Positions 2,384-28,787 of a stretch of DNA of 64,000 nt are shown here, in pieces. The notes below the pieces were generated by a model that was given only the letters and a program-made list of their open reading frames with translations, was not told the origin of the DNA and made no database searches. Origin of the DNA: a virus (lineage: Duplodnaviria > Heunggongvirae > Uroviricota > Caudoviricetes); IMG/VR virus record IMGVR_UViG_2925891887_000001, one strand, 5' to 3'. Position 1 is the stretch's first letter; every line of letters starts with the position of its first letter. A program made the translations under genes and the position numbers.

Positions 2384-4699
2384 ATGATAAGCATCGTAAA
2401 ACGTAACGGCCAAACAGAGCCGTTATCCGAAGAAAAATACAACCGCGTCGTAATGTATGGCGTAGAAGGCATTCGTGGTGTAAGCGCATCCGCTGTAGCA
2501 ATGGGAGCTGCGGCCAGCATTTTTGATGGGATGACCACCAGCCAGTTGCATGAGGCTTTGGTTAAATCTGCCGCTGATTTGATCTCACCAGAAGCACCAA
2601 ATTACTCACAGGTGGCTGCCCGCCTGAACATTTTTAAAATCCGCAAAGATGCCTTCGGTCGTTACGACTATCCGAACTTCTACCAACACATTGTCAAGAA
2701 CGTTAACAAGGGCGTTTATGACAAGGATTTGCTGACACATTATTCGTTTGAAGAGATCGAAGAACTCGGCAATTACATTAAGCCTAAACGTGACGATCTT
2801 TTTGGCTATGCAGCTACGGTGCAGTTGCAAAGCAAATACCTCGTTCAAAACCGTGTTACTGGTGAGATTCATGAGGGGCCGCAACATATCTATATGCTGG
2901 TAGGCATGTGTCTGTTCCAGAATTGGGAAGACGACTGCGCTGGCAAAACACGTATGGAGATGGTCAAAGGTTTCTATGACGTTACAAGTACGTTCAAACT
3001 GTCTCTGCCCACACCAATCATGGCCGGCGTCCGTACTCCAACCCGTCAGTTCTCCAGTTGTGTGCTGATTGAGTCTGGCGATAGTCTGAAAGGGATTAGT
3101 GCAGCTTCAGCCGCAATTATCGACTACGTTTCACGTCGTGCTGGAATTGGTATTGGTTTTGGCCGTATCCGTGCGCTGGGCAGCGAGATCCGCAATGGTG
3201 AAGCCACCCATACCGGAGTTATTCCATTCCTGAAGCATTTCCAGACGGCTGTTAAATCTTGTTCGCAAGGTGGTGTTCGTGGTGGCGCAGCAACAGCGTT
3301 TTACCCGATCTGGCATCTTGAAGTTGAAAGTCTGCTGGTGGTGAAAAATAACCGTGGTATTGATGAAAACCGCGTTCGCCATCTTGATTACGGCGTCATG
3401 AGTAACCGTCTAATGTACCGTCGACTCGTCAGAAGCGAGAACATCACTCTGTTCAGCCCGCATGATGTGCCTGATATGTACGAAGCCTTCTTCACAGACC
3501 AGGAGCTGTTTGAAAAGCTGTACCATAAATACGAAGCCGATGATTCAATTCGCAAGAAGTCAGTACCTGCCATTGAGCTGTTCTCATCTCTGATGCAGGA
3601 ACGAGCGTCCACGGGCCGAATTTATATTGCGAACGTCGATCATATTAATGAGCATGGCGCTTTCATTCCTGCTCTTGCACCTGTCCGCCAGTCAAACCTG
3701 TGTATGGAGATCACCCTACCCACCCGTCCACTGGCATTTACCGACGACCCGAACGGTGAGATCGCGCTATGCACTTTATCCGCTTTTAACCTCGGAGCCA
3801 TCCGTTCACTGGAGTCTCTTAAAGAGGTGGCGTTCTATGCCGTTGCTGCACTGGATTCGTTACTGGATTATCAAGACTATCCGATGGAGGCAGCCGAAGT
3901 GCCTGCCAAAGCTCGTCGTAGCTTGGGAATTGGTGTAACCAACTTTGCTTATTACCTGGCAAAGAATGGCGTTCGTTATTCTGATACCGCTGGCAATAAA
4001 CTGGTGCATGAAACATTCGAAGCTATCCAGTATTACCTTCTTGATGCCAGCTGCCGACTTGCTGAAGCAAAAGGTGAGTGTGACTGGTTTGAGCAGACCA
4101 AGTACGCAATTGGTCAGTTGCCGATCGACCATTACCGTTCTTCATTAGACGAAAGTGGCGAAACCAACTTTGAGTTAAAGATGCCGTGGGAAGAACTGCG
4201 TGAACGTATTGCAAAATACGGCCTTCGCAACTCCACACTGACGGCACAAATGCCATGCGAGACTTCCAGCCAGATCACTAATTCCACCAACGGCATCGAA
4301 CCGCCTCGTGGCCCGGTGTCGGTGAAATCTTCTAAGGACGGCATCGTTAAGATGGTCGTGCCTGAGTTTGAAAAACTGAAGGAACAGTATGAATACCTGT
4401 GGGATATGCCGGACAACCGCGGCTATCTGACAAAGGTGGCGATCATCCAGAAGTTCTTTGACCAGGCTATTTCAGCCAATACCAACTATGACCCTTCTCG
4501 CTTTGAAGGCGATAAAGTCCCAATGATGACGCTACTGTCAGATTTGCTTCTCGCCTACAAGATGGGAGTTAAAACGCTTTACTACCACAACACCAGAGAT
4601 GGGGCAGGAAAGCGTGATGACGACGAACCGCAAAATCCACTGACGCAAGCTGTAGCCGTCGAGCCAGAAGATGAGTGCGACGGAGCCTGCAAAATCTGA
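2384..4699 (+). CDS. nrdA: ribonucleoside-diphosphate reductase alpha subunit (class Ia, with ATP-cone)
   Basis: 771 aa; near-colinear with E. coli NrdA as I recall it (PTPIMAGVRTPTRQFSSCVLIE, NLCMEI, C-terminal CDGACKI). Confidence 0.93.
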   Translation: MISIVKRNGQTEPLSEEKYNRVVMYGVEGIRGVSASAVAMGAAASIFDGMTTSQLHEALVKSAADLISPEAPNYSQVAARLNIFKIRKDAFGRYDYPNFYQHIVKNVNKGVYDKDLLTHYSFEEIEELGNYIKPKRDDLFGYAATVQLQSKYLVQNRVTGEIHEGPQHIYMLVGMCLFQNWEDDCAGKTRMEMVKGFYDVTSTFKLSLPTPIMAGVRTPTRQFSSCVLIESGDSLKGISAASAAIIDYVSRRAGIGIGFGRIRALGSEIRNGEATHTGVIPFLKHFQTAVKSCSQGGVRGGAATAFYPIWHLEVESLLVVKNNRGIDENRVRHLDYGVMSNRLMYRRLVRSENITLFSPHDVPDMYEAFFTDQELFEKLYHKYEADDSIRKKSVPAIELFSSLMQERASTGRIYIANVDHINEHGAFIPALAPVRQSNLCMEITLPTRPLAFTDDPNGEIALCTLSAFNLGAIRSLESLKEVAFYAVAALDSLLDYQDYPMEAAEVPAKARRSLGIGVTNFAYYLAKNGVRYSDTAGNKLVHETFEAIQYYLLDASCRLAEAKGECDWFEQTKYAIGQLPIDHYRSSLDESGETNFELKMPWEELRERIAKYGLRNSTLTAQMPCETSSQITNSTNGIEPPRGPVSVKSSKDGIVKMVVPEFEKLKEQYEYLWDMPDNRGYLTKVAIIQKFFDQAISANTNYDPSRFEGDKVPMMTLLSDLLLAYKMGVKTLYYHNTRDGAGKRDDDEPQNPLTQAVAVEPEDECDGACKI

Positions 4700-12500: not shown

Positions 12501-12600
12501 CTGGTGTCTGTAATTAGCCTGCTTCTGTATATATAAATAACTACATATTAATTATTAATATACGGAAGAAGGCTGTTTTGTATCAGAGACTCCAGACCTG
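12501..12600. repeat. nested inverted-repeat element R1 (copy of R2 at 39057-39154)
   Basis: gcctgcttctgtatatat ... atatacggaagaaggc arms around an AT-rich loop, outer ctggtgtctg/ccagacctg; about 75% identical to R2. Confidence 0.6.
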
Positions 12601-12679
12601 AACATCACTACAGAATCCACTAGAACCCCTTCCCAGACGCTTTAAAATCGATTTTATGAACCACTTTAAGGAAACCAAC

Positions 12680-12910
12680 ATGTCATACCCGACTAATGTC
12701 GTTGCGCTCGTAGAGAGCGATTTTCTGGCCCAGGCTCGTGAAATGATGAAAGATCGTGAGCAGGCTTTCAACTTGTACGAATGGGCAATTAAGTGCTTGC
12801 ATCTTGGCGAGCATCGCGAACTTGTTGAACAGCTTTTAGGTGAGTTGATCAATGAGGTGTTTGCCTTGAATGTTCAACTACATGGTAGAGAAAATAATCA
12901 ACCACAATGA
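12680..12910 (+). CDS. hypothetical protein (76 aa)
   Basis: Internal ATG with SD AAGGAAACC. Confidence 0.4.
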   Translation: MSYPTNVVALVESDFLAQAREMMKDREQAFNLYEWAIKCLHLGEHRELVEQLLGELINEVFALNVQLHGRENNQPQ

Positions 12911-13492
12911 TAGATAAGTACAAACTATTCATAAAGTGAATTGTAAGTGCTAAGATCTGATAGTTTCCAGTCGTAGACTGGAGACTCGACCTGATGGGTG
13001 GGGGTAAGCGTCACTGGCGTCAGGTTTAAAAAAGCTCACTACCAGCGTAGAACTGGTGCCGTTTAGGTGTCGGGGAAGGGGGAACCAAAGTGAGCAGAGA
13101 CAAGGGTCACTTTATGATTGTCGAGTCTGGGGTGTTTCGAGAGGTTGAATCCAGTACTCCCCTTCATAAAGTGTGGGAAGATCTCGGTTCTGGGGTGCTG
13201 TCATCCATAACTTCCCAAGTCTAAGCTGGCAGTAGACTTAGACCATAACTTTTCAGGTTATGAAACGACCAGGTTGGTGAGAGATTTTTATACTCACCTC
13301 CCTGGGAGAGTATTACCTGAAAAGACAACCTCTCACTTCGTTCGAGGTGAACTTCACTCACTTCGTTCGTTCAGTTCAGGTTTATAAAAACCTGTTCTGG
13401 GAAGTAATTTGTTTATTTTAATAATTATTAACACGCACGCGTGTGCGCACGCGCGAAGAAAAATCGGCGCGGCGCTTGATTCAGGAGTTTAT

Positions 13493-14083
13493 ATGACGAC
13501 GAAGACACCAGCCCGATCGCAAGCAAAAACTCGCAAAAAAGCCAAAAACAAAAATTCCCCCCGCACCAATCCCACAACGCCTGTCGTAGAGTTCAATCCC
13601 CAGCTTAAAACCGTGAAAATCTTTAGTGATGGCTCTTGCCTTAAAAATCCGGGTGGCCCGGGCGGTTACGGTATCGTTCTCCAGTATCGTGGTGAGGAAC
13701 GCGAGTTCTCAGATGGTTTTCATAGCACCACCAATAACCGCATGGAGATGATGGGGGCACTTATCGGGCTGGAGCGTTTGAAATATCCATGCAACGTTAT
13801 TTTGCACTCTGATAGCCAGTATCTGAAAAACGGCATGACACAGTGGATGAAATGGTGGAAACGCAATGGATGGATGACTTCTGACAAAAAACCGGTAAAG
13901 AATGTTGATCTGTGGAAGCGTCTGGATGAGGCCGCAAGTCGACATAATGTTCGCTGGAAGTGGGTTAAAGGTCACGCCGGGCATCGTGAAAATGAAATAT
14001 GTGATCGACTCGCGAAGATCGCAGCTTTTTCAGCAGCAGATATGCCTCACAAGAAAGATATTGGTTTTGTTTATAATAAATAG
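13493..14083 (+). CDS. rnhA: ribonuclease HI with basic N-terminal extension
   Basis: [41 protein letters not shown], [12 protein letters not shown] colinear with E. coli RnhA; SD CAGGAG. Confidence 0.85.
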
Positions 14084-19577: not shown

Positions 19578-20678
19578 TCACACTGCGCGGAATGCGATTT
19601 CGCCAGGTATTACTTCACCTTGCCAATACATTTGGGCAGCAACGCGATCTGCGAGGTCACGATAAATAGCCGTAAATTCACTATCTGGACGACTAATAAC
19701 GGTTGGTGTTCCGTTATCCAGATCTTCACGAAGAGAGATATGAAGTGGCATTTGGCCTAACAACTGCGTGTTGTATTTCTCGGCCAGTTTCTGTGCGCCA
19801 CCGGTGCCAAAAATTGGCTCGTGATGACCGCAGTTACTGCAAATATGCACACTCATGTTTTCAACGATACCCAGTACCGGCACTTCGACTTTTTCGAACA
19901 TCACAATGCCTTTCTTCGCATCGATCAGCGCGATGTCTTGCGGCGTAGTTACCACAACCGCACCAGTTACAGGAATGTTCTGCGCCAGCGTCAATTGAAT
20001 ATCACCAGTGCCCGGTGGCATATCGAGAACGAGATAGTCCAGATCAGGCCACAGTGTTTCCTGCAACATCTGCATCAGCGCCTTGCTGGCCATCGGTCCA
20101 CGCCACACCATTGCATTGTCGTCGGTGACCAGATAACCAATAGAGTTGGTTGCCAGGCCATGAGACATGATAGGTGCCATGTGAGTACCGTCCGGTGAGG
20201 TTGGACGTTGGTTTTCCGCGCCCAGCATGGTTGGAATTGATGGACCATAGATATCGGCATCCAAAATACCAACTTTCGCACCTTCAGCAGCCAACGCCAG
20301 TGCCAGGTTTACCGCCGTGGAGGATTTACCCACGCCGCCCTTGCCCGAGCTGACGGCGATAATGTTCTTAACGCCATTAATGCCTGGTTGGTTTTTGACG
20401 CGCTTAAGCGTGGCAATGTTGTACGACAGCTTCCAGTCAATAGCCTTTGCGCCAGTGATACGGAGCAGATCACCACTACATTGCTCTTTCAGGTCTTCAA
20501 AAGGCTTATTCCACACGAAAGGCATGATTAGTTCGACATGCAGTGTGTCATCCATCAACGCAACATGGTGTAACGCTTTAAGCGTAGTCAGGTTGTGTTT
20601 CAGGGTTGGGTGCTGAAAATTAGCCAGCGTACCGGCTACCATTGCTCTCAGGGCATCCGGCGATTTGGACTCGCTCAT
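19578..20678 (-). CDS. apbC: Fe-S cluster carrier ATPase Mrp/ApbC (E. coli chromosomal gene)
   Basis: 366-aa ORF with deviant Walker [12 protein letters not shown], CxxC pair (ICSNCGHH) and near-identity to E. coli Mrp as I recall it. Confidence 0.9.
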
Positions 20679-20835
20679 CCCGTCTCCTTTATTTTAATTT
20701 GCGCAATTGTCGCCTTGTAGTGTACTCCAGCTACGACATTTAATCATTTATGAGAAATGCTGTTATCACATGGCAGACATAAGGCCATTTTGTTACTATC
20801 AAGCCCCTTTTCACTACAAAGAAGTAATGCCTACT

Positions 20836-22869
20836 ATGACCCAAGTCGCGAAGAAAATTCTGGTGACGTGCGCGCTGCCGTACGCTAACGGCTCAATCCA
20901 CCTCGGCCATATGCTGGAGCACATCCAGGCTGATGTCTGGGTTCGTTACCAGCGAATGCGCGGCCACGAGGTTAATTTCATCTGTGCCGACGATGCCCAC
21001 GGTACGCCGATCATGCTGAAAGCACAGCAGCTTGGTATCACACCGGAGCAGATGATTGGCGAAATGAGTCAGGAACACCAGACTGATTTCGCAGGCTTTA
21101 ACATCAGCTATGACAACTATCACTCGACGCACAGCGAAGAGAACCGTCAGTTGTCTGAGCTTATCTATACTCGCCTGAAAGAGAACGGTTTTATTAAAAA
21201 CCGTACTATCTCTCAGTTGTACGACCCGGAAAAAGGCATGTTCCTGCCGGATCGTTTTGTGAAAGGCACCTGCCCGAAATGTAAATCCCCGGATCAATAC
21301 GGCGATAACTGCGAAGTCTGCGGCGCGACCTACAGCCCGACTGAATTGATCGAGCCGAAATCGGTGGTTTCTGGTGCTACCCCGGTAATGCGTGATTCTG
21401 AACACTTCTTCTTTGATCTGCCCTCTTTCAGCGAAATGTTGCAGGCATGGACCCGCAGCGGTGCGTTGCAGGAGCAGGTGGCAAATAAAATGCAGGAGTG
21501 GTTTGAATCCGGCCTGCAACAGTGGGATATCTCCCGCGACGCGCCATACTTTGGTTTTGAAATTCCGAACGCGCCGGGCAAATATTTCTACGTCTGGCTG
21601 GACGCACCGATTGGCTACATGGGTTCTTTCAAGAATCTGTGCGACAAGCGCGGCGACAGCGTAAGCTTCGATGAATACTGGAAGAAAGACTCCACCGCCG
21701 AGCTGTACCACTTCATCGGTAAAGATATCGTTTACTTCCACAGCCTGTTCTGGCCTGCCATGCTGGAAGGCAGCAACTTCCGCAAGCCGACCAACCTGTT
21801 TGTTCATGGCTATGTGACGGTGAACGGCGCGAAGATGTCCAAGTCTCGCGGCACCTTTATTAAAGCCAGCACCTGGCTGAATCATTTTGACGCTGACAGC
21901 CTGCGTTACTACTACACTGCGAAACTCTCTTCGCGCATTGATGATATCGATCTCAACCTGGAGGATTTCGTTCAGCGCGTGAATGCCGATATCGTGAACA
22001 AAGTGGTTAACCTGGCGTCCCGTAACGCTGGCTTTATCAATAAGCGTTTTGACGGTGTGCTGGCAAGCGAGCTGGCTGACCCGCAGTTGTACAAAACCTT
22101 CACTGATGCCGCTGAAGTGATTGGTGAAGCGTGGGAAAGCCGCGAATTTGGTAAAGCTATCCGTGAAATCATGGCACTGGCTGACCTGGCTAACCGCTAT
22201 GTCGACGAGCAGGCTCCTTGGGTAGTCGCAAAACAGGAAGGTCGCGATGCTGACCTGCAGGCGATTTGCTCAATGGGCATCAACCTGTTCCGCGTGCTGA
22301 TGACTTACCTGAAACCGGTACTGCCGAAACTGACAGAACGTGCGGAAGCATTCCTGAATACGGAACTGACCTGGGATGGCATCCAGCAACCGCTGCTGGG
22401 CCATAAAGTGAATCCGTTCAAAGCACTGTATAACCGTATCGACATGAAACAGGTGGAAGCATTGGTGGAAGCGTCTAAAGAAGAAGTGAAAGCTACTGCC
22501 GCGCCAGTTACTGGCCCGCTGGCAGACGACCCGATTCAGGAAACCATCACCTTTGACGACTTTGCCAAAGTTGACCTGCGCGTGGCACTGATCGAAAACG
22601 CAGAGTTTGTTGAAGGTTCTGACAAACTGCTGCGCCTGACGCTGGATCTCGGCGGTGAAAAACGCAATGTCTTCTCAGGCATCCGTTCTGCTTATCCAGA
22701 CCCACAGGCACTGATTGGTCGTCACACCATTATGGTGGCTAACCTGGCTCCGCGTAAGATGCGCTTCGGCATCTCCGAAGGTATGGTGATGGCTGCTGGC
22801 CCCGGCGGGAAAGATATCTTCCTGTTAAGCCCGGATGCTGGTGCTAAACCTGGCCACCAGGTTAAGTAA
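20836..22869 (+). CDS. metG: methionyl-tRNA synthetase (E. coli chromosomal gene)
   Basis: 677 aa from [26 protein letters not shown]; HIGH-type motif, KMSKS, zinc knuckle CPKC...CEVCG; essentially identical to E. coli MetG. Confidence 0.95.
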
Positions 22870-23330: not shown

Positions 23331-23500
23331 AGTGTATAAGCGGATCAATGAGTTACGGAAACAGTTAATAATGAGGAGCTTGTAATAAGCTGTATACCCT
23401 AGAAAAGCTAGACTAGGGAATAAAATGACGTGAAACTGGGCGAGACAGTAAATAATTCCGAATGATAATTGAACAAATAACCCCTTGCTCGGAGCTTGGA

Positions 23501-24691
23501 ATGACTGATACCGCTTTTTCAAAATCGTTACAAAAAGAAGTCGATCCTGAGCAGTACTTGGCGCTAAAGAATTTAGATGACAGCTCGGTTCATGCTATTG
23601 CCCGTGACGATATCATCTGCCCCATTTGCAAAGTTGGAGGTGGTTCGTTCGTTAGAGCCACTAGGAATGGTGGCTATCACAAGAAGGCGCATTTCAGATT
23701 TACCGGTGAAGATGGTCAAGGCCATCATCCATCATGTGATTTCTATGGAGATAGACTAACATCTGAGGTGAAGCAGCACCTTGTCTCATTCACAAAAGAT
23801 CGAACAAAGTATTCGCAGGTAATACGAAAGCTGGTCTGTGCCGGCATACAGGAAGGGATATTTACTCAAGAAAAAATGTGGCAGATGAGGGAATGGTTCT
23901 TCAATAAGCGAAAGGATTCCACATTTGAAATATGGTTAGAAAGCGAGCATTTAGACTGGCTTTATTATATTAGTGGGTTACGTGATGCATATCTAGCATG
24001 GACAACTCCTGATATTCTACCTTTCGCGCCCATTCAGGTTACTGTGCCTGGTTTTTCTTGGAAGCGTGCGATTGACAAAGAGGTGCTAAGAGTTCACATC
24101 AAGACTCTCCAGCAATTGCGTGAAATTTCAGTCTCACATAGAGACATTGCTGTAATCTTAGAACACATAAACAATAATCGTGACCGCACAATTCTCGATC
24201 CATCGCATTTGGAGGACGAGATAAGTAAGACCTGTAAGCTTACTAGTTTTGTGATGGGCAATTACATTGAGTTTCAGACAAAAACGGTTAGCGACAGAGC
24301 ATACGGGGAAGCTAAGTTTCTGGCATTTGCAGCACTTTTGTTGTTCGTGTCAGATTGGGACCTCAACATTGCTATTGGTAAGTTTTCTAAGATTGCCAGA
24401 GTGAAGGAGGTTGATGACATGCTGGCTGGTAATTTCATTGGTCTTAATCCTTACTTCCGATACGACCTGGCTAATGCAGTGAAGAGATTGCAGGATAACT
24501 GGCCGATTGAATACCAAGAGTTGGAGCATTGGAATGTTGAGAAATCCATGCGTGACGCATATGAAAAGTGGCGTGCGACAGAGCCTGAATTCGCTCCACC
24601 CCTATTGCCAGACTTGTATATTGCCAAACATGAGAAAGAAGTCGCACAAGACGAGCAAGTCAGGCAGTGGATTAAGAACGGGGATGTTTGA
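23501..24691 (+). CDS. hypothetical protein with N-terminal zinc-ribbon-like motif (396 aa)
   Basis: SD GGAG; CPICKVGGGS ... HHPSCDFYG cysteine/histidine cluster; no family recognised. Confidence 0.45.
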   Translation: MTDTAFSKSLQKEVDPEQYLALKNLDDSSVHAIARDDIICPICKVGGGSFVRATRNGGYHKKAHFRFTGEDGQGHHPSCDFYGDRLTSEVKQHLVSFTKDRTKYSQVIRKLVCAGIQEGIFTQEKMWQMREWFFNKRKDSTFEIWLESEHLDWLYYISGLRDAYLAWTTPDILPFAPIQVTVPGFSWKRAIDKEVLRVHIKTLQQLREISVSHRDIAVILEHINNNRDRTILDPSHLEDEISKTCKLTSFVMGNYIEFQTKTVSDRAYGEAKFLAFAALLLFVSDWDLNIAIGKFSKIARVKEVDDMLAGNFIGLNPYFRYDLANAVKRLQDNWPIEYQELEHWNVEKSMRDAYEKWRATEPEFAPPLLPDLYIAKHEKEVAQDEQVRQWIKNGDV

Positions 24692-24829
24692 GTGTAATTA
24701 GCTTAATCAATCAGTTGATAATGGCGGTCACAATTTGATTCTTTTCTATAAGAATCCGTTGATCGCCACTACTCTTCTTCCATACCTGCAATCACACCTT
24801 TAAATATCAATAGGTTAACGTTGTTTATA

Positions 24830-25675
24830 CCAATAAGAAAACAACTAAATAACAGATCAACGAAACATCAACGCTTTCACCCGATTTGGTCTAAAAAATT
24901 GACGTTTTCACACATCACTTCTTATACCCGTAATTCTACGCAGCAGATAGCGCTACAGCGTCCAAATTTCACCACAGACGACTCAACACACTACCAACAA
25001 AAACACACGCTCAAAATCGCTCCCGTTGCGTTACACAACCATATAAACAACTTATTTTCAGGTATAACAAAACAACTAAATAACACACATGCCATTACCC
25101 AAAACAACCAACCTCTTTATGGCAGGCTACCGAAAAGACCCACCTCTTCTCCCCAGGCTACCGGACAACCAACCTAACTTTCACAGGCAATCCGAAAACA
25201 TTCATACGCGCGATACCCACGACACGCCATTACCCAAACAGCGAAGAAACACCAGAATCACTGAAAACCCAACGAAGCCTGTTACCGCAAGGATTCTCTC
25301 AATCCCAAAAGACACGAAACAGAACAATCACGGGAAACGCCATTACCCAATACACGAATAACTACAAAAGCCTTTCACACACTCCAGACAAACAACTCAA
25401 ACACAATAACGAAAGGAATCGCCCACCTGCCATTACTCCATACACGGAGAAGAACAATCACCAAAACGACGAGAACACCCCATAGAAGAACCACCGCAAA
25501 ACGAACGAAACCACATACACCGACAGAGAGAACAACACACCCAATTCACCAACAGAAATAGTCGCCGTATAGAACGTTCTGGAAGGAGTGAGCATTAACG
25601 CCTATAGAGAGGTTGAGACAGATAAAACACAACATGTATAGCGAAGAAGCCAGGTATGTATAAGTGGGGAGGGAA
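24830..25675 (+). ncRNA. candidate long G-depleted (A/C-rich) non-coding transcript
   Basis: About 12% G over about 730 bp; begins at a half motif-A promoter-like element; four spaced GCCATTACCC copies; ends at terminator 25676-25697; only low-complexity chance ORFs. Confidence 0.3.
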
Positions 25676-25697
25676 GGAGGGGTGTCGCCTCCTTTTT
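25676..25697 (+). terminator. intrinsic terminator
   Basis: ggagg...cctcc stem followed by TTTTT. Confidence 0.5.
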
Positions 25698-25744
25698 CGT
25701 ATTTATTCAACTCCTGATTTTATCCCCCGTAACACCCCTACGGT

Positions 25745-25900
25745 CAGCCTTCGGTCCATACAGGGAAAAGGTTGCATCCCGCTACAGAAACGGCTGGGTT
25801 GCCTTCGGGGAACGGCTGGAGGTTTTCAGGGAAACGGTCGAGTTGCCTGTGTGGATTTCGGGAAAAGGCTCGATGCCGGTTCAGGAACGGTGGCGTACCG
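25745..25900. repeat. array of at least 6 degenerate 22-24-bp repeats with core (C/T)AGGGAAAcGG
   Basis: cagggaaaaggttgc, cagaaacggctggg, cggggaacggctgg, cagggaaacggtcg, cgggaaaaggctcg, caggaacggtggcg. Confidence 0.6.
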
Positions 25901-26271
25901 GTATAGCGAGAGGGAGAGTTGCGGCTACCCACCTGTAATGTGCGGGAAGAAGAGAGGCGCTCACGTAGGCGGACTTGCTTACCGCTGGATTCCCTCTGAA
26001 TGCCCAGCTACAGCGTAATTGTGCCAGACAGCCAGCGGGTCACAATCGATTTCAGTAGGTTTTTGGGGAGAGGATTACTCTGCCACCAGCCACTTTCGGC
26101 CACTAAATCAGAATAATGTAAAAAGTGCACTCGGTACTGAACCTGAAAACTCACTGCCAAAACCACATTCACCGGAATAAAATCCTTTTTCGCCTGTGCG
26201 TTATTGCGATAATAACACCAACAAGTAAACAACATGTTTAGACGTTATATAAACGAAGTGAGGATGAAGAG

Positions 26272-26490
26272 ATGATTAAGATGCCTGTGACGGTTGAGGT
26301 GTGGGGCGTGGATTCCCTGGCTGAGTGTCTGGATGCAGTGGGGCCGGAGTTGTACCGCAAGTTGTGGTCGTTCGTCCCGGCAGAAGGGGAACCGCCCAAG
26401 GGGAAGGATATCTGGCACCTGCTGAGTGAAGATGAAAAGCGGGAGCTGGTGGACGCGGTACACAGCGAGTTCCCGGGCGACGAAGATTAA
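26272..26490 (+). CDS. hypothetical small acidic protein (72 aa)
   Basis: SD GAGGATGAAGAG then ATG; terminator immediately downstream. Confidence 0.45.
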   Translation: MIKMPVTVEVWGVDSLAECLDAVGPELYRKLWSFVPAEGEPPKGKDIWHLLSEDEKRELVDAVHSEFPGDED

Positions 26491-26497
26491 GAGTGAG

Positions 26498-26520
26498 GCC
26501 ACCAGCACGGTGGCTTTTGT
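26498..26520 (+). terminator. intrinsic terminator
   Basis: gccaccagcacggtggc followed by TTTTGT. Confidence 0.55.
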
Positions 26521-26628
26521 CGCTATTAACCTCCGGGCAGCGCAACACCGTAACGATATACTTTGTGGCCGTTTTCTTACTGGTATTGTTTACGCAATTT
26601 AGAAAACAACATGTTTAAGGATTGCTTT

Positions 26629-26958
26629 ATGTTTACAAATATCGACATCAACCAAATCAAGAAATTAACTCAAAAAGAGTTTGATCAGTTTTATGAGTTA
26701 GAAGGTTGGTCTTCCACTCTGATCAATTCAAGATGGGTGCTGGAGCTGATGACTCGTGATGACGCACCTGCTTTGATGATTTGCGACATGGGTGAAGATG
26801 CTGACTTTATGGATATGAGCGAATTTTGTGTGGACACATACAACCGCAGCCAGAAGTACTACTTCACATGCGATAGCGAAAATGACGTGATTTCTAAGGT
26901 CTATCTTCACCTCGTCCAGCATTGGGACGTTCAGGAGTTTCTTGAAGTATTCGAGTAA
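26629..26958 (+). CDS. hypothetical protein (about 109 aa)
   Basis: ATG with AAGGA 9 nt upstream; alternative start 26611. Confidence 0.45.
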   Translation: MFTNIDINQIKKLTQKEFDQFYELEGWSSTLINSRWVLELMTRDDAPALMICDMGEDADFMDMSEFCVDTYNRSQKYYFTCDSENDVISKVYLHLVQHWDVQEFLEVFE

Positions 26959-27111
26959 CCCCAACCAAAGCCAGCATTGCTGGCTTAATTTCTCTATAGA
27001 CGCAGGGAAGAACCTGCATATCGCTCATGCGCCTGATCAATATGCTTTGTAGCCGTTTTCTTACTGGTATTATTTACGCCATTGAGAAAACAAGTTGTTT
27101 ACGGAGTTGTA

Positions 27112-27423
27112 ATGAAAAAATCATTGGTTCTTGGTCTGGACAAAGACCAGAAGAGAAAAGAGAAGCCTGCGCTGGTTGCTCAATTAACTTTGCTGGACAT
27201 CGTTGCCAATGGGACCTCTATTCGTCTGTTCCGTGAAACAGCGGTGTCTTTCGATAAAAACACCTTTACTCGTTATGTAATGAATGTTCGTCGCCAGCGT
27301 GGAAAAGGCTGGGTGGCATTTCAAAGAATGTGGCCGGAACATCAGCTCGAACTGGCTTTGATGGAAGTTAACCGCGTGGCCCAGCAAGAGATTCAGAGAG
27401 CATCAGTGATGGCAATAGCCTGA
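27112..27423 (+). CDS. hypothetical protein (103 aa)
   Basis: SD ACGGAG; motif A at 27085-27100. Confidence 0.45.
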   Translation: MKKSLVLGLDKDQKRKEKPALVAQLTLLDIVANGTSIRLFRETAVSFDKNTFTRYVMNVRRQRGKGWVAFQRMWPEHQLELALMEVNRVAQQEIQRASVMAIA

Positions 27424-27458
27424 TAATGTGCAAGTGGCAATTAGTCGACAGTACGACA

Positions 27459-27486
27459 GCCCCGCCATCCTTACGGGGCTTTTTTG
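27459..27486 (+). terminator. intrinsic terminator
   Basis: gccccgccatccttacggggc followed by TTTTTTG. Confidence 0.6.
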
Positions 27487-27490
27487 TATT

Positions 27491-27506
27491 GTAAGTACAT
27501 ACTTAC
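27491..27506. promoter_or_regulatory. motif B palindrome GTAAGTACATACTTAC
   Basis: Perfect inverted repeat between terminator and gene 27550. Confidence 0.5.
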
Positions 27507-27549
27507 GATCATAGAATAGAAAAATAACCAATACACTACGGAGAGTGAA

Positions 27550-27945
27550 ATGACCGTTAAACGCGAAAAACTGACAGTTGATGTTTACTATGCCTCTGAA
27601 ACCGCCGAAGGTAAGAATGTGGCAAAAATCACCGTTGTTACGTACAACACCGAAACTGGTGCCGAAGTACAGGCCAGTACGATCGTGCGTAAAGGTGATG
27701 CCTCCGGCGGCGAGTACGCGACTCAATACCAGTCCATTCTCGATGCAACTGACCCGCTGCTGCTGAAAATCGAGAACTACTTCCGCCAGGTTGATGAAGA
27801 GGTGTTTGAAACCATGATGAATATGGTTAACACCGTATTCGCCTCCAGCCTGAATACCAACACTACCTGGATTGGTCAGTACGGCCTGCGCATTACCTCT
27901 GGCATTCCTGCCGACACCTTAATCCCTGAAAGCGTATTCGCTTAA
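27550..27945 (+). CDS. hypothetical protein (131 aa)
   Basis: SD CGGAGAG then ATG. Confidence 0.5.
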   Translation: MTVKREKLTVDVYYASETAEGKNVAKITVVTYNTETGAEVQASTIVRKGDASGGEYATQYQSILDATDPLLLKIENYFRQVDEEVFETMMNMVNTVFASSLNTNTTWIGQYGLRITSGIPADTLIPESVFA

Positions 27946-27953
27946 TCCTCTTT

Positions 27954-27982
27954 AAATGGCGCGTAAACCGCGCCATTTTATT
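27954..27982 (+). terminator. intrinsic terminator
   Basis: aatggcgcgtaaaccgcgccatt followed by TTATT. Confidence 0.55.
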
Positions 27983-28062
27983 AAGCCCGATAACAATTTG
28001 TTTTCTGCCTTATCTGATTTGTGAAAATGATTTCACTGAAGCAAGTTAATAAGGAAACCATC

Positions 28063-28437
28063 ATGGGACTTGATATCTATATCGAGACACAGCCTAAAAA
28101 CGATCTGAATAACGAGGCATCCAGAAAGCAGGTTGCTTACTTCCGTAAGTTCAATGCGCTCGTTGGGTGGATGGAGCGCAACGTAGGTGAAGTCGAAAAT
28201 TGTGAGCTTTTAGAATTAACGATGAATGACATTTGTTTTCTGAAGGCTCATTTGATGCACATAAACGAAAGTAATTGCGAAGAGTACTTGCCTACCCGGG
28301 AAGGTTTTTTCTTCGGCAGTCAGGAGTACGATGAAGGTTACTGGCATGATGTGGGGCAGTTGAAAGAGCTTGTGGAAGATCTGATTAAGAACCACGACTT
28401 TCACAATAACAGACTGACCTTCTGCGCCTGGTGGTAA
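28063..28437 (+). CDS. hypothetical protein (124 aa)
   Basis: ATG after SD AAGGAAACC; motif A at 27990-28004. Confidence 0.45.
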   Translation: MGLDIYIETQPKNDLNNEASRKQVAYFRKFNALVGWMERNVGEVENCELLELTMNDICFLKAHLMHINESNCEEYLPTREGFFFGSQEYDEGYWHDVGQLKELVEDLIKNHDFHNNRLTFCAWW

Positions 28438-28439
28438 AT

Positions 28440-28583
28440 ATGGGCGATTTCAAGAAACGCCTGAAGGAAAGAGCCGAGATGGTCAGAAAGCAAAACGCCT
28501 CTTCTGTCATCAGATACGCAAGGCAGTTTAGTCGCAACAACAAATCAGTTGAGGAAAAGATCCTTAGCGTAATCGTGCGATAA
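28440..28583 (+). CDS. small basic protein (about 47 aa)
   Basis: ATG 3 nt after upstream stop; below ORF-track cutoff. Confidence 0.25.
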   Translation: MGDFKKRLKERAEMVRKQNASSVIRYARQFSRNNKSVEEKILSVIVR

Positions 28584-28609
28584 TTATTAAGGCCATCAGC
28601 ATTGGTGGC

Positions 28610-28725
28610 CTTAAATGACCATCTTGTTTCCCGCAGGCTAAAAACACCAACCTCTTACCTCCAGGCAACCGACAAACCCACCTGTTCCCGTCCGGCTACC
28701 GCAACTTTCCACTTTGACGCCTTAT
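28610..28725. repeat. second A/C-rich G-poor segment (related to 24830-25560)
   Basis: caggctaaaaacaccaacctcttacctccaggcaaccgacaaacccacctgttcccgtccggctaccg parallels caggctaccgaaaagacccacctcttctccccaggctaccggacaacc near 25.12 kb. Confidence 0.5.
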
Positions 28726-28751
28726 TCGTACAACGATAATTAACACCAACA

Positions 28752-28766
28752 AGAAAACAATTTGTT
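28752..28766. promoter_or_regulatory. motif A palindrome AGAAAACAATTTGTT
   Basis: 21 nt upstream of ATG 28788. Confidence 0.5.
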
Positions 28767-28787
28767 ATTTACGATAAGGAATTAATC

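Follow-up and report, generated by a model that had tools for sequence, protein, structure and literature searches.

The stretch of DNA that we analyzed (64,000 nt; the window) is an SSU5/pHCM2-like phage-plasmid, in which the gene for a 76-aa protein and the RNase HI gene flank an unusually long gap. A preliminary description had noted that no ORF of 60 aa or more occurs on either strand at 12911-13408, which would be unusual for this genome. Indeed, the longest ORFs inside are 46 aa and 44 aa, and these 498 nt are the longest stretch in the window lacking an ORF of at least 60 aa (the runner-up is 350 nt). Moreover, the TTG at 13409 opens a merely mechanical ORF, while annotation of relatives places the RNase HI start at the ATG at 13493, preceded by AGGAG (13484-13488); therefore, the true non-coding gap is 12911-13492. 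An alternating purine-pyrimidine tract described earlier does exist (25 nt, 13431-13455), but since RNase HI starts at 13493, the tract lies upstream of the gene and not in its first codons, as had been thought. The hairpins and the duplicated unit of that description were all located: a ggtgag...ctcacc hairpin at 13277-13299, caggtttataaaaacctg at 13377-13394, and two copies of ctcacttcgttcg at 13332-13344 and 13357-13369. The conserved element begins near 12963, rather than at 12911. The features of the locus, with paired segments named P0 to P14, are as follows.

12680-12910, + strand: gene for the 76-aa protein (84 aa from ATG 12656), PHROG 5343, always directly upstream of the RNA
12928-12956, + strand: predicted sigma-70 promoter, with -35 TTCATA (12928-12933), a 17-nt spacer and extended -10 TGcTAAGAT (12948-12956)
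12962-12986, + strand: 5'-terminal hairpin P0, present in every clade, each with unrelated sequence
12989-13025, + strand: helix P1 (12989-13003 with 13009-13025), carrying the G-rich GGGUGGGGG
13035-13094, + strand: domain P2-P4 (P2, 13035-40 with 13089-94; P3, 13042-46 with 13069-73), also holding a variable inner hairpin and the conserved single-stranded GGGGAAGGGGGAACCAAAG
13103-13173, + strand: P5-P7 region, with the 5' strand of the 3-bp P5 (13103-05 with 13316-18) and with P6 (13108-16 with 13165-73) enclosing P7 (13127-31 with 13150-54), whose loop bears AGAGGUUG (13140-13147)
13140-13333, + strand: pseudoknot between the P7 loop (13140-13147) and CAACCUCU (13326-13333)
13174-13305, + strand: central domain, with P9 (13174-80 with 13211-17), P10 (13193-97 with 13202-06), P11 (13219-28 with 13233-43), P12 (13244-50 with 13256-62) and P13 (13269-81 with 13293-305), which includes the ggtgag...ctcacc hairpin
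13326-13378, + strand: paired adjacent hairpins, each loop showing the duplicated CUCACUUCGUUCG (13332-13344, 13357-13369); P14 is 13348-53 with 13373-78
13377-13420, + strand: 3' region, with the hairpin 13377-13394, the conserved UUCUGGGAAGUAA (13395-13407) and a U-rich tract (13408-13420)
13405-13431, no strand assigned: spacer of 20-45 nt, AT-rich in every lineage and variable in sequence and length
13431-13464, no strand assigned: alternating purine-pyrimidine GC tract (13431-13455), ending in a conserved GCGCGA(A/G)G plus A-run (13450-13464)
13493-14083, + strand: RNase HI gene, with a basic N-terminal extension of ~39 aa; a neighbor of the RNA and not part of it

We found that the core of the gap (13000-13400) is 90-99% identical to relatives from Escherichia, Salmonella, Klebsiella, Enterobacter and Cronobacter, compared to 66-83% in the coding sequence on either side; part of the high core identity could be due to the segment having spread by recombination. 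The RNA is conserved in all SSU5/pHCM2-type phage-plasmids that we examined; the region is present in 686 PLSDB plasmids and 12 phage records, and the RNA in 231 of 5426 complete E. coli genomes (~4%). Beyond those genera, a contig scan of genomes identified it only in Buttiauxella and two Kluyvera, two further matches being due to chance. The syntenic region of the L093-95 lineage yielded neither a BLAST match nor a covariance-model match (E about 0.7), and we rejected its homology to the RNA; this region nonetheless folds strongly (z = -5.1).

We observed no resemblance to known RNA families. Rfam 15, in a set that includes GOLLD, ROOL, OLE, HEARO, raiA, RNase P, 6S, tmRNA, CsrB, C4, RNAI and group I/II introns, gave no match at gathering scores in the whole window and only noise at E <= 10 in 12800-13600 (at most 21 bits, to eukaryotic or viral families). 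ARAGORN found no tRNA or tmRNA genes in the 64 kb, and the preliminary description had seen no canonical tRNA T-loop. RefSeq carries no annotation of the RNA, and our literature search found no paper tying SSU5, pHCM2 or phage-plasmids to an ncRNA or origin at this locus.

The support for the structure comes from an alignment of 18 sequences (A2), assessed against slid controls. Among 99 pairs, 99.3% of pair cells are paired (33-49% in the controls), the covariation score is 0.286 (<=0.071 in the controls), and 30 pairs show two-sided changes (1-4 in the controls), although the compensatory changes come mostly from a few deep splits (JZ38 clade, L091, L096, and the Klebsiella and Salmonella Anatum lineages) and independent events are therefore modest in number. 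Fifteen helices and one pseudoknot are supported by the comparative evidence, and L096 and L091 add further compensatory changes. In P1, 4 of the 13 pairs have two-sided changes and 100% of cells are paired, and L091 has GUUACG/CGUAAC instead of CCUGA/UCAGG. Two-sided changes are likewise found at 2 of 3 pairs in P5, 3 of 9 in P6, 3 of 5 in P7 and 3 of 6 in P14; the 3' hairpin (13377-13394) covaries inside the main clade, and L091 has a large insertion in domain P2-P4. The pseudoknot, of 8 bp, is invariant in A2 and undergoes a G-C to U-A change in L096 and L091; its pairing competes with a local CCUC/GAGG hairpin. A covariance model of the central domain (R1) scored 95-168 bits in four lineages, all similar in P9-P10 sequence. 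The duplicated loop motif is UCACUnCGUUC or CGCUUCGC in other clades, and UCUGGG(A/U)A is retained in all four RNA lineages. Loops and junctions are conserved to the same degree as stems.

The asymmetry between strands is pronounced. Folding of the + strand (12960-13422) gave z = -4.6, and the alifold energy is -107.6 for the + strand compared to -65.4 for the - strand. The + strand structure has 212 G-U cells and 17 mismatches, while the mirrored - strand structure has 226 mismatches. Thus, the G-U pairs indicate that the + strand is the functional one.

The promoter stretch is poorly conserved in A2, except for the invariant -35 TT and -10 TA..AT (TTnnnn, 17 nt, TAnnAT), and a promoter scan recovered this site in both SSU5 (TTTAAA-17-TAAAAT, with TG) and L091 (TTTACT-17-TATGAT). 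Its geometry would place the transcription start at ~12963. At the other end, conservation drops beyond about 13408, and we found no canonical intrinsic terminator, so the 3' end (13377-13420) is a putative one. The purine-pyrimidine run that follows (25 nt) far exceeds the next longest in the window (12 nt); in 200 mononucleotide shuffles the longest run averaged 16.3 nt, with a maximum of 25. Its length differs among relatives by CA/CG units, and the GCGCGAG(G) plus A-run is retained even in relatives without rnhA. We considered this motif as a repeated operator or promoter, and rejected that idea based on its single occurrence in the window. The AT-rich spacer and GC tract accompany the RNA and may signal either the 3' end of the RNA or a cis site linked to it, their fixed linkage to the RNA being a hint of a cis role.

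The flanking genes differ in their attachment to the RNA. RNase HI is clearly identified (Pfam RNase_H, E = 1e-44, residues 40-178; PHROG 531); some relatives have a Tad2-like gene, an unknown gene (222-aa protein) or betT in place of rnhA and still retain the RNA. Thus, the association of the RNA with RNase H is non-obligatory. Homologs of the upstream 76-aa protein are confined to this phage-plasmid group. We considered that it might be a Rop-like RNA-binding helical hairpin, but AlphaFold models it as a fold of three helices (pLDDT 79), for which the PDB holds no significant match, and we rejected this possibility.

We also looked for antisense relationships. Across the window and the other 44 kb of PhiR41_1, complementary sites are at chance level (the longest is 12 nt), and in the same sequences no targets of the duplicated loop rise above chance. 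Shuffled RNAs give ~14 complementary 11-mer matches, and an 11-nt complementary match covering the Shine-Dalgarno sequence of ORF 26272-26490 was rejected as within this expectation. We found no RNA I-like antisense gene and no - strand terminator inside the RNA; the sole - strand promoter-like site (12969 to 12940) faces away from the RNA, in non-conserved sequence.

Published RNA-seq counts for phage Cyrano, which is 97% identical to this phage, indicate that the region is transcribed in lysogens. CYRAN_81, whose value is a gene-level count over 135 nt inside the RNA region, stands at ~117 fpkm in LB, compared to 9.5 and 8.4 fpkm for its neighbors CYRAN_80 and RNase H, and is comparable to the Cyrano repressor (96 fpkm) (Table 1 and S1 Table of PMC9928086). 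Expression thus falls about 14-fold from the RNA to the RNase H gene, and the upstream 76-aa gene is silent while the RNA is on. Under each of the five conditions, CYRAN_81 exceeds its neighbors, rising to log2 10.3 after 6 h in macrophages, and the region, among the few phage loci active in lysogens, increases about ten-fold inside macrophages (PMC9928086).

We conclude that the locus is a real RNA gene, apparently undescribed, with the hallmarks of a structured ncRNA: a conserved fold supported by compensatory changes and by strand-specific G-U pairs, a dedicated promoter and signs of transcription. Among the three readings in the preliminary description, a structured ncRNA is therefore strongly supported by conservation, covariation, strand asymmetry, the conserved promoter and published expression; small peptides are rejected (see below), and a replication or recombination site is a minority reading for the 3' part only (AT-rich spacer and GC tract). 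With moderate confidence, we propose that the + strand at ~12963-13420 is an independent gene, encoding a highly structured ncRNA of ~460 nt that is expressed in lysogeny and acts in trans as a folded RNA. The host-type sigma-70 promoter (12928-12956) would drive a transcript that begins with a stabilizing 5' hairpin, folds into about 15 helices in three domains joined by the pseudoknot (13140-47 with 13326-33), presents the identical loop motif on two hairpins, and probably terminates in the U-rich tract ahead of the RNase HI gene. It is made in the plasmid-prophage state, with the surrounding lytic replication and nucleotide-metabolism genes silent, and may work as a protein-binding or scaffold RNA or as a regulator of the lysogenic state. 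By exclusion, a trans-acting RNA of the lysogenic state is the most likely function; a DNA site, leader or mRNA is less likely, because loops and junctions are conserved like stems, the phage genome offers no extended antisense target, and different genes can take the downstream position. It is highly probable that the RNA constitutes an undescribed class: a large tertiary-structured RNA (~460 nt, 15 helices, a pseudoknot), specific to SSU5/pHCM2 elements in Enterobacteriaceae, expressed from the plasmid-prophage and with a function of its own, perhaps as a ribonucleoprotein or scaffold, as a catalytic RNA, or as the structured pre-primer of an RNase H-processed origin. The novelty lies in the RNA family.

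We considered that the RNA might be the pre-primer of an R-loop (transcription-activated) origin, like ColE1 RNA II, T4 ori(uvsY), T7 or mitochondrial LSP/CSB, which we regard as an unlikely but serious rival. The transcript would enter the AT-rich unwinding region and the GC tract, form a persistent hybrid there, and yield a primer for lytic or auxiliary replication once RNase H cleaves it at the conserved GCGCGAGG plus A-run. The order of elements fits (promoter, ~450 nt of structured G-rich RNA, AT-rich tract, GC tract, purine A-run, RNase HI gene), the candidate switch region (13450-13464) lies ~500 nt downstream from the promoter (12928-12956), as in ColE1-type geometry, and the GC tract occurs once in the window. 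The GCGCGAG(G) plus A-run, which follows the RNA even where rnhA is lost, resembles the ColE1 RNA-DNA switch, GGAAAAA|CGCC. Moreover, an unrelated lambdoid lineage (L027/L018/L054) has an identical 27-nt hairpin, ACAACCTCTCACTACGTTCGAGGTTGT, then ACGTGCGCGCACG, inside an O-like replication initiator gene at the position of lambda's origin; this single phage lineage accounts for the match, two further pattern matches being chance, and we rejected it as a general origin motif. Against this reading, the plasmid replicon lies elsewhere, comprising the Rep-like ORF 23462-24691 and iteron arrays (25.1 and 28.6 kb). The phage encodes a Pol III alpha-like polymerase, a primase and a FEN, rather than a polymerase of the Pol A type that serves the ColE1, T7 and mitochondrial origins, and the overlapping antisense RNA I gene of ColE1-type systems is absent. 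Furthermore, the RNA is abundant in lysogens with lytic genes off, the U-rich sequence right after it disfavors a stable hybrid, and GC skew, which tracks gene orientation, has no inflection at the locus that could signal an origin.

Another serious rival, similarly improbable, is that the RNA acts in cis, as a leader or attenuator, on the early-lytic or accessory operon that follows it (RNase H, two small genes, TciA/TciB-like or Ant). In this model, the RNA would be constitutive and transcription would usually stop before the genes until a signal or phage factor permits read-through, as in P1 c4-icd-ant, P4 CI or a very large riboswitch-like sensor. The drop in expression from the RNA to the RNase H gene in lysogens is consistent with this arrangement, as are the lack of a detectable sigma-70 promoter from the RNA to rnhA and the antirepressor gene a few genes downstream in SSU5. 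Alternative folds are suggested by two copies of UGGGAAG (13174-80 and 13398-404), each of which can pair with CUUCCCA (13211-17). However, this alternative pairing, found in the main clade, is lost in the JZ38 clade without covariation: P9 covaries, and the 3' copy does not. The immediate downstream gene varies as described above, no sequences complementary to the loops occur downstream, and ~460 nt with 15 helices is far beyond any known leader in size.

A DNA-level element, either folded single-stranded DNA or a protein-binding site (for primosome assembly or single-strand initiation, packaging, or recombination) at which transcription is incidental, is very unlikely. G-T pairs in single-stranded DNA would yield the same strand asymmetry, the direct repeats of CTCACTTCGTTCG, 25 bp apart, are iteron-like, and the GC tract is unique in the window; but the conserved promoter of the right geometry, the 5' hairpin and lysogenic expression far above the neighbors all indicate an RNA product, the stems flanking the repeats covary, which simple double-stranded iterons would not need, the terminase genes are distant, and known ssi/pas elements are much smaller than ~460 nt. 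Finally, a small protein gene, whether the 44-aa ORF (13090-13224), annotated as the CDS CYRAN_81 and listed as an expressed 'moron' in Cyrano (PMC9928086), or another micropeptide, is scarcely credible and was rejected, because the ORFs are broken despite conserved nucleotides (for the 44-aa ORF, L053 and Klebsiella carry frameshifts, Salmonella Anatum in-frame stops and the JZ38 clade no start codon, such that 4 of the 6 sequence groups compared have a frameshift, internal stop or lost start; the 46-aa ORF on the - strand and a 37-aa ORF on the + strand are likewise disrupted in relatives) and because substitutions track base-pairing rather than codon position.

Since CYRAN_81 is not a protein, its annotation needs correction. 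If our reading of the locus as a new RNA class is right, this class has been overlooked in ~4% of complete E. coli genomes, where it was mistaken for a hypothetical protein. The RNA occurs in the bacterial family that has been studied best, on phage-plasmids that also disseminate resistance genes and are frequent in clinical E. coli, Klebsiella, Salmonella Typhi and Enterobacter. The expression in lysogens and the rise in macrophages suggest that the RNA may act in plasmid-prophage maintenance, the lysis-lysogeny decision, replication or host interaction. Few bacterial RNAs exceed 300 nt and have a complex conserved fold, and to our knowledge every such large RNA with a solved function showed unusual biochemistry, as ribozymes, ribonucleoprotein machines or RNA cages.

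Several known systems resemble this RNA in part. Like the P1 c4 and P4 CI immunity RNAs, it is an ncRNA of the lysogenic state with a constitutive promoter upstream of silent lytic or antirepressor genes. Those RNAs are about 70-80 nt and act via short complementary sites on their own operon; in contrast, this RNA is six times larger, has no Rfam match, and its complementary sites are not above chance, including between its loops and the downstream operon. T4 ori uvsY and ori 34, T7 and mitochondrial LSP/CSB also have a promoter followed by an AT-rich or G-rich region for a possible transcript hybrid, and RNase H takes part in primer processing there. Their leader transcripts are short and unstructured, whereas here 450 nt of conserved tertiary-type structure separate the promoter from the AT-rich tract. 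ColE1/pMB1 RNA II is a further parallel, as a structured transcript of ~500 nt from a constitutive sigma-70 promoter, read toward an RNase H-linked site, with G-rich segments and a purine A-run following a GC-rich stretch. Unlike RNA II, this RNA has no RNA I partner and no Rop-like protein, is followed by a U-rich tract, shows no sequence or covariance-model similarity to RNA II, and resides in an element with a Rep/iteron replicon elsewhere and a Pol III-type polymerase. Large structured orphan RNAs of phages and prophages (GOLLD, RF01998; ROOL, RF03087; also OLE, raiA and HEARO) share no covariance-model similarity with it, even at E <= 10. They occur in Firmicutes, Actinobacteria and marine phages, while this RNA is found in Enterobacteriaceae phage-plasmids, does not lie beside tRNA genes and is expressed in lysogeny. 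Nevertheless, like this RNA, these large RNAs are several hundred nt long with many covarying helices and pseudoknots, are likewise carried on mobile or phage DNA, are more conserved than the neighboring genes, and came to light as long conserved intergenic regions whose function was unknown at discovery.

The interval 12911-13408 is free of ORFs of at least 60 aa on both strands, as the preliminary description had stated, and an ORF scan showed that nowhere in the window is an interval of this kind longer (the runner-up is 350 nt). By sequence search, the surrounding segment (12600-13600) belongs to an SSU5-like phage-plasmid: identity is 98-99.5% with Escherichia phages CMS-2020a, PhiR41_1 and Cyrano, and 80-84% with both Salmonella phage SSU5 and phage-plasmids of Klebsiella. 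The non-coding stretch alone has matches in 12 phage records and 686 PLSDB plasmids (from Klebsiella, Escherichia, Enterobacter, Salmonella, Citrobacter and Cronobacter); among the PLSDB plasmids listed, nearly all are non-mobilizable and ~100-115 kb. It is found in 231 of 5426 complete RefSeq E. coli genomes, with no annotation under the match in any of 25 rows sampled across the ranking of these 231. In a nine-sequence alignment across genera, 13000-13400 is 90-99% identical to the window, compared to 66-83% for the flanking coding sequences and 57-59% for 12900-13000. The non-coding core exceeds the adjacent genes in conservation and is thus under nucleotide-level selection.

The suggestion that this stretch encodes a structured non-coding RNA (~460 nt, ~12963-13420, + strand) is borne out by conservation, covariation, strand asymmetry, a conserved promoter and published expression. 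The hairpins claimed earlier are present, as is the duplicated unit CTCACTTCGTTCG (13332-44 and 13357-69). For 18 representative sequences, including four from the Cronobacter JZ38-type clade that are only ~68% identical, RNAalifold predicted ~100 pairs, 33 with compensatory double changes. In the curated structure, with 15 helices (pseudoknot included), standard pairs fill 99.3% of 1782 pair cells, compared to 33-49% in slid controls, in which pairing partners are moved by 1-3 alignment columns. Furthermore, the check on covariation in related phages yielded 30 pairs changed on both sides (1-4 in slid controls) and a score of 0.286 (at most 0.071 in slid controls), resting on a handful of deep lineages. 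Two further divergent lineages, L096 (82% identity) and L091 (without a BLAST match), were found via the linked upstream protein and carry independent compensatory replacements in helices P1, P10, P11, P12 and P13. In the pseudoknot, AGAGGUUG (13140-47) pairs with CAACCUCU (13326-33), and one pair is changed from G-C to U-A in both L096 and L091. A covariance model of the central domain (13174-13305) scored 95-168 bits in the lineages tested, with no other match in the 200 kb of sequence searched. The functional strand is the + strand: read on +, the structure has 212 G-U cells and 17 mismatches, compared to 3 G-U cells and 226 mismatches on -, and the alifold energy is -107.6 (+) versus -65.4 (-). 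The Infernal search of Rfam matched no family, and the tRNA scan was negative, in agreement with the T-loop reported missing at the outset. In a more distant lineage (L093-L095), the corresponding position holds a ~710-nt gap (3226-3938), with two RNase H genes after it; homology to the RNA was undetectable in this syntenic region, though it folds strongly (z = -5.1), and the gap represents an analogue or else a relative that has diverged greatly.

Sequence 5' of the core is poorly conserved except at key promoter positions: the -35 TT, a 17-nt spacer, the -10 TA..AT and, usually, a TG extension. In the window, these conserved positions point to one site:

12928-12956, + strand: putative sigma-70-type promoter, TTCATA-17-TGcTAAGAT

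It scores 8/12, under the scan threshold; the scan detects the same site in SSU5 (TTTAAA-17-TAAAAT with TG) and in L091 (TTTACT-17-TATGAT). Transcription probably starts near 12963. Every clade has a hairpin at this presumed start, its sequence differing completely from one clade to the next, and a 5' hairpin of this kind is typical of stable RNAs. Conservation stops near 13408, past an invariant UCUGGG(A/U)A, at a U-rich tract; since the terminator scan detected no canonical terminator, we infer the 3' end of the RNA. We also note that the -35 region (12928-12940) repeats TTCATAAAGTG of helix P6 (13107-13117, 13163-13173), complementary to the other P6 strand, in the E. coli clade only; the repeat is not conserved in other clades.

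Phage Cyrano (E. coli LF82), 97% identical in the region, annotates a 44-aa ORF within the RNA as CYRAN_81, which is among the prophage genes 12-fold over local background in lysogens (Misson et al. 2023; PMC9928086). Published RNA-seq counts place coverage inside the RNA well above that beside it.

Expression of Cyrano genes in LB (S1 Table, PMC9928086; library strandedness uncertain)
CYRAN_80, upstream gene: 9.5 fpkm
CYRAN_81, within the RNA: ~117 fpkm
CYRAN_82, RNase H: 8.4 fpkm
CYRAN_45, repressor: 96 fpkm

CYRAN_81 exceeds its neighbours in all five conditions, and in macrophages at 6 h its log2(fpkm+5) is 10.3, compared to ~5 for the flanking genes (PMC9928086). Thus, the locus is transcribed as a separate unit, and either its transcription or the stability of the RNA gives out ahead of rnhA. 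Outside the window, CYRAN_43 (OV696614 40268-40822), annotated as a 'hypothetical protein' and adjoining the genes for integrase and repressor, has an expression 723-fold over prophage background in lysogens (PMC9928086); it may represent a second misannotated RNA or else a gene of major importance in lysogeny.

A ~76-aa gene always immediately precedes the RNA; it belongs to PHROG 5343, with no function assigned, and is restricted to this phage group, and a structure search with its modelled three-helix fold gave no PDB match. Most relatives have RNase HI 3' of the RNA, but this gene varies: the JZ38 clade carries a Tad2-like anti-defence gene there, one Klebsiella plasmid encodes a 222-aa protein of no assigned function, and a rearrangement has brought in betT. 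In the Cronobacter sp. JZ38 plasmid, for instance, a Tad2-like (Thoeris anti-defence 2) protein (3529-3840) directly follows the RNA, replacing RNase HI. This slot behaves like an accessory or anti-defence slot.

The alternating purine-pyrimidine tract described previously is present (25 nt, 13431-13455; the second-longest run in the window is 12 nt; shuffles, mean 16, maximum 25), but its placement in the first codons of the RNase H ORF was wrong. ORF "13409" opens merely at TTG, while RNase HI annotation in relatives begins at ATG 13493, preceded by AGGAG, and in a Pfam search the RNase H domain falls at residues 40-178 of the protein read from that ATG; thus, the tract lies upstream of the gene. 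The phage protein has a basic, low-complexity N-terminal extension of ~39 aa (13493-13610) that is absent from E. coli RnhA and could be a nucleic-acid-binding tail. In every RNA-bearing lineage, an AT-rich spacer of 20-45 nt follows the RNA, then a CA/CG alternating tract varying in length by repeat units, then a conserved GCGCGAG(G) and A-run; the tract occurs only once in the window. Since the motif is retained even in JZ38-type elements without rnhA, the module travels with the RNA. It could mark the 3' end or a processing site, or act as a roadblock, as an element prone to Z-DNA or as an RNA-DNA switch.

The most likely reading, which we hold with moderate confidence, is that the folded RNA stands alone and acts in trans in the lysogenic state, based on loops and junctions conserved like stems, interchangeable downstream genes, its own promoter, abundance in lysogens and the lack of antisense targets. 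The test for a c4-like mechanism was negative: complementary matches did not exceed chance in the window or in the remainder of the PhiR41_1 genome. A leader or attenuator would account for the drop in expression after the RNA, but the alternative fold lacks covariation and the downstream gene varies, so that the RNA is not a dedicated RNase H leader; we consider this unlikely.

We likewise doubt that the RNA is an R-loop pre-primer. The layout, the RNase H neighbour and a link to the lambdoid phage L027 are consistent with such a role, but an RNA I analogue is missing, the RNA end is U-rich, the polymerase is Pol III-type (the phage replisome has a Pol III alpha-like protein, plus primase and FEN) and the Rep/iteron replicon is separate. 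This replicon lies 10 kb away, with a Rep-like ORF (23462-24691; 409 aa, no match in a Pfam search) and iteron arrays. The replicon region (23462-28770) has four GCCATTACCCA iterons (25079-25444), two clusters of three ~30-bp repeats (25101-25197 and 28612-28705) and, upstream of four small + strand genes, 26-55-nt repeats with a GAAAACAAnnTGTT palindrome that look like operators. The phage-plasmid also carries a divergent pair of host-type genes (19578-22869):

19578-20678, - strand: Mrp/ApbC-like ATPase
20707-22869, + strand: methionyl-tRNA synthetase, full-length

A purely DNA-level element is very improbable. A coding gene is extremely unlikely: the small peptides envisaged earlier would come from three ORFs inside the stretch (+ strand, 44 and 37 aa; - strand, 46 aa), which in L053, Klebsiella, Salmonella Anatum and the JZ38 clade are frameshifted, stopped or without a start, and thus selection is not on a peptide.

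A hairpin, ACAACCTCTCACTACGTTCGAGGTTGT, occurs in one lambdoid phage lineage (L027 6200-6360; also L018 and L054) and is absent from all other lineages searched. Its first 23 nt are the JZ38-type sequence of the RNA's loop hairpin, while the remainder completes a local stem. The lambdoid hairpin is followed by ACGTGCGCGCACG, a GC purine-pyrimidine tract, and sits midway through an O-like replication-initiator gene, directly behind iteron-like repeats and an AT-rich segment, at the place of the lambda origin.
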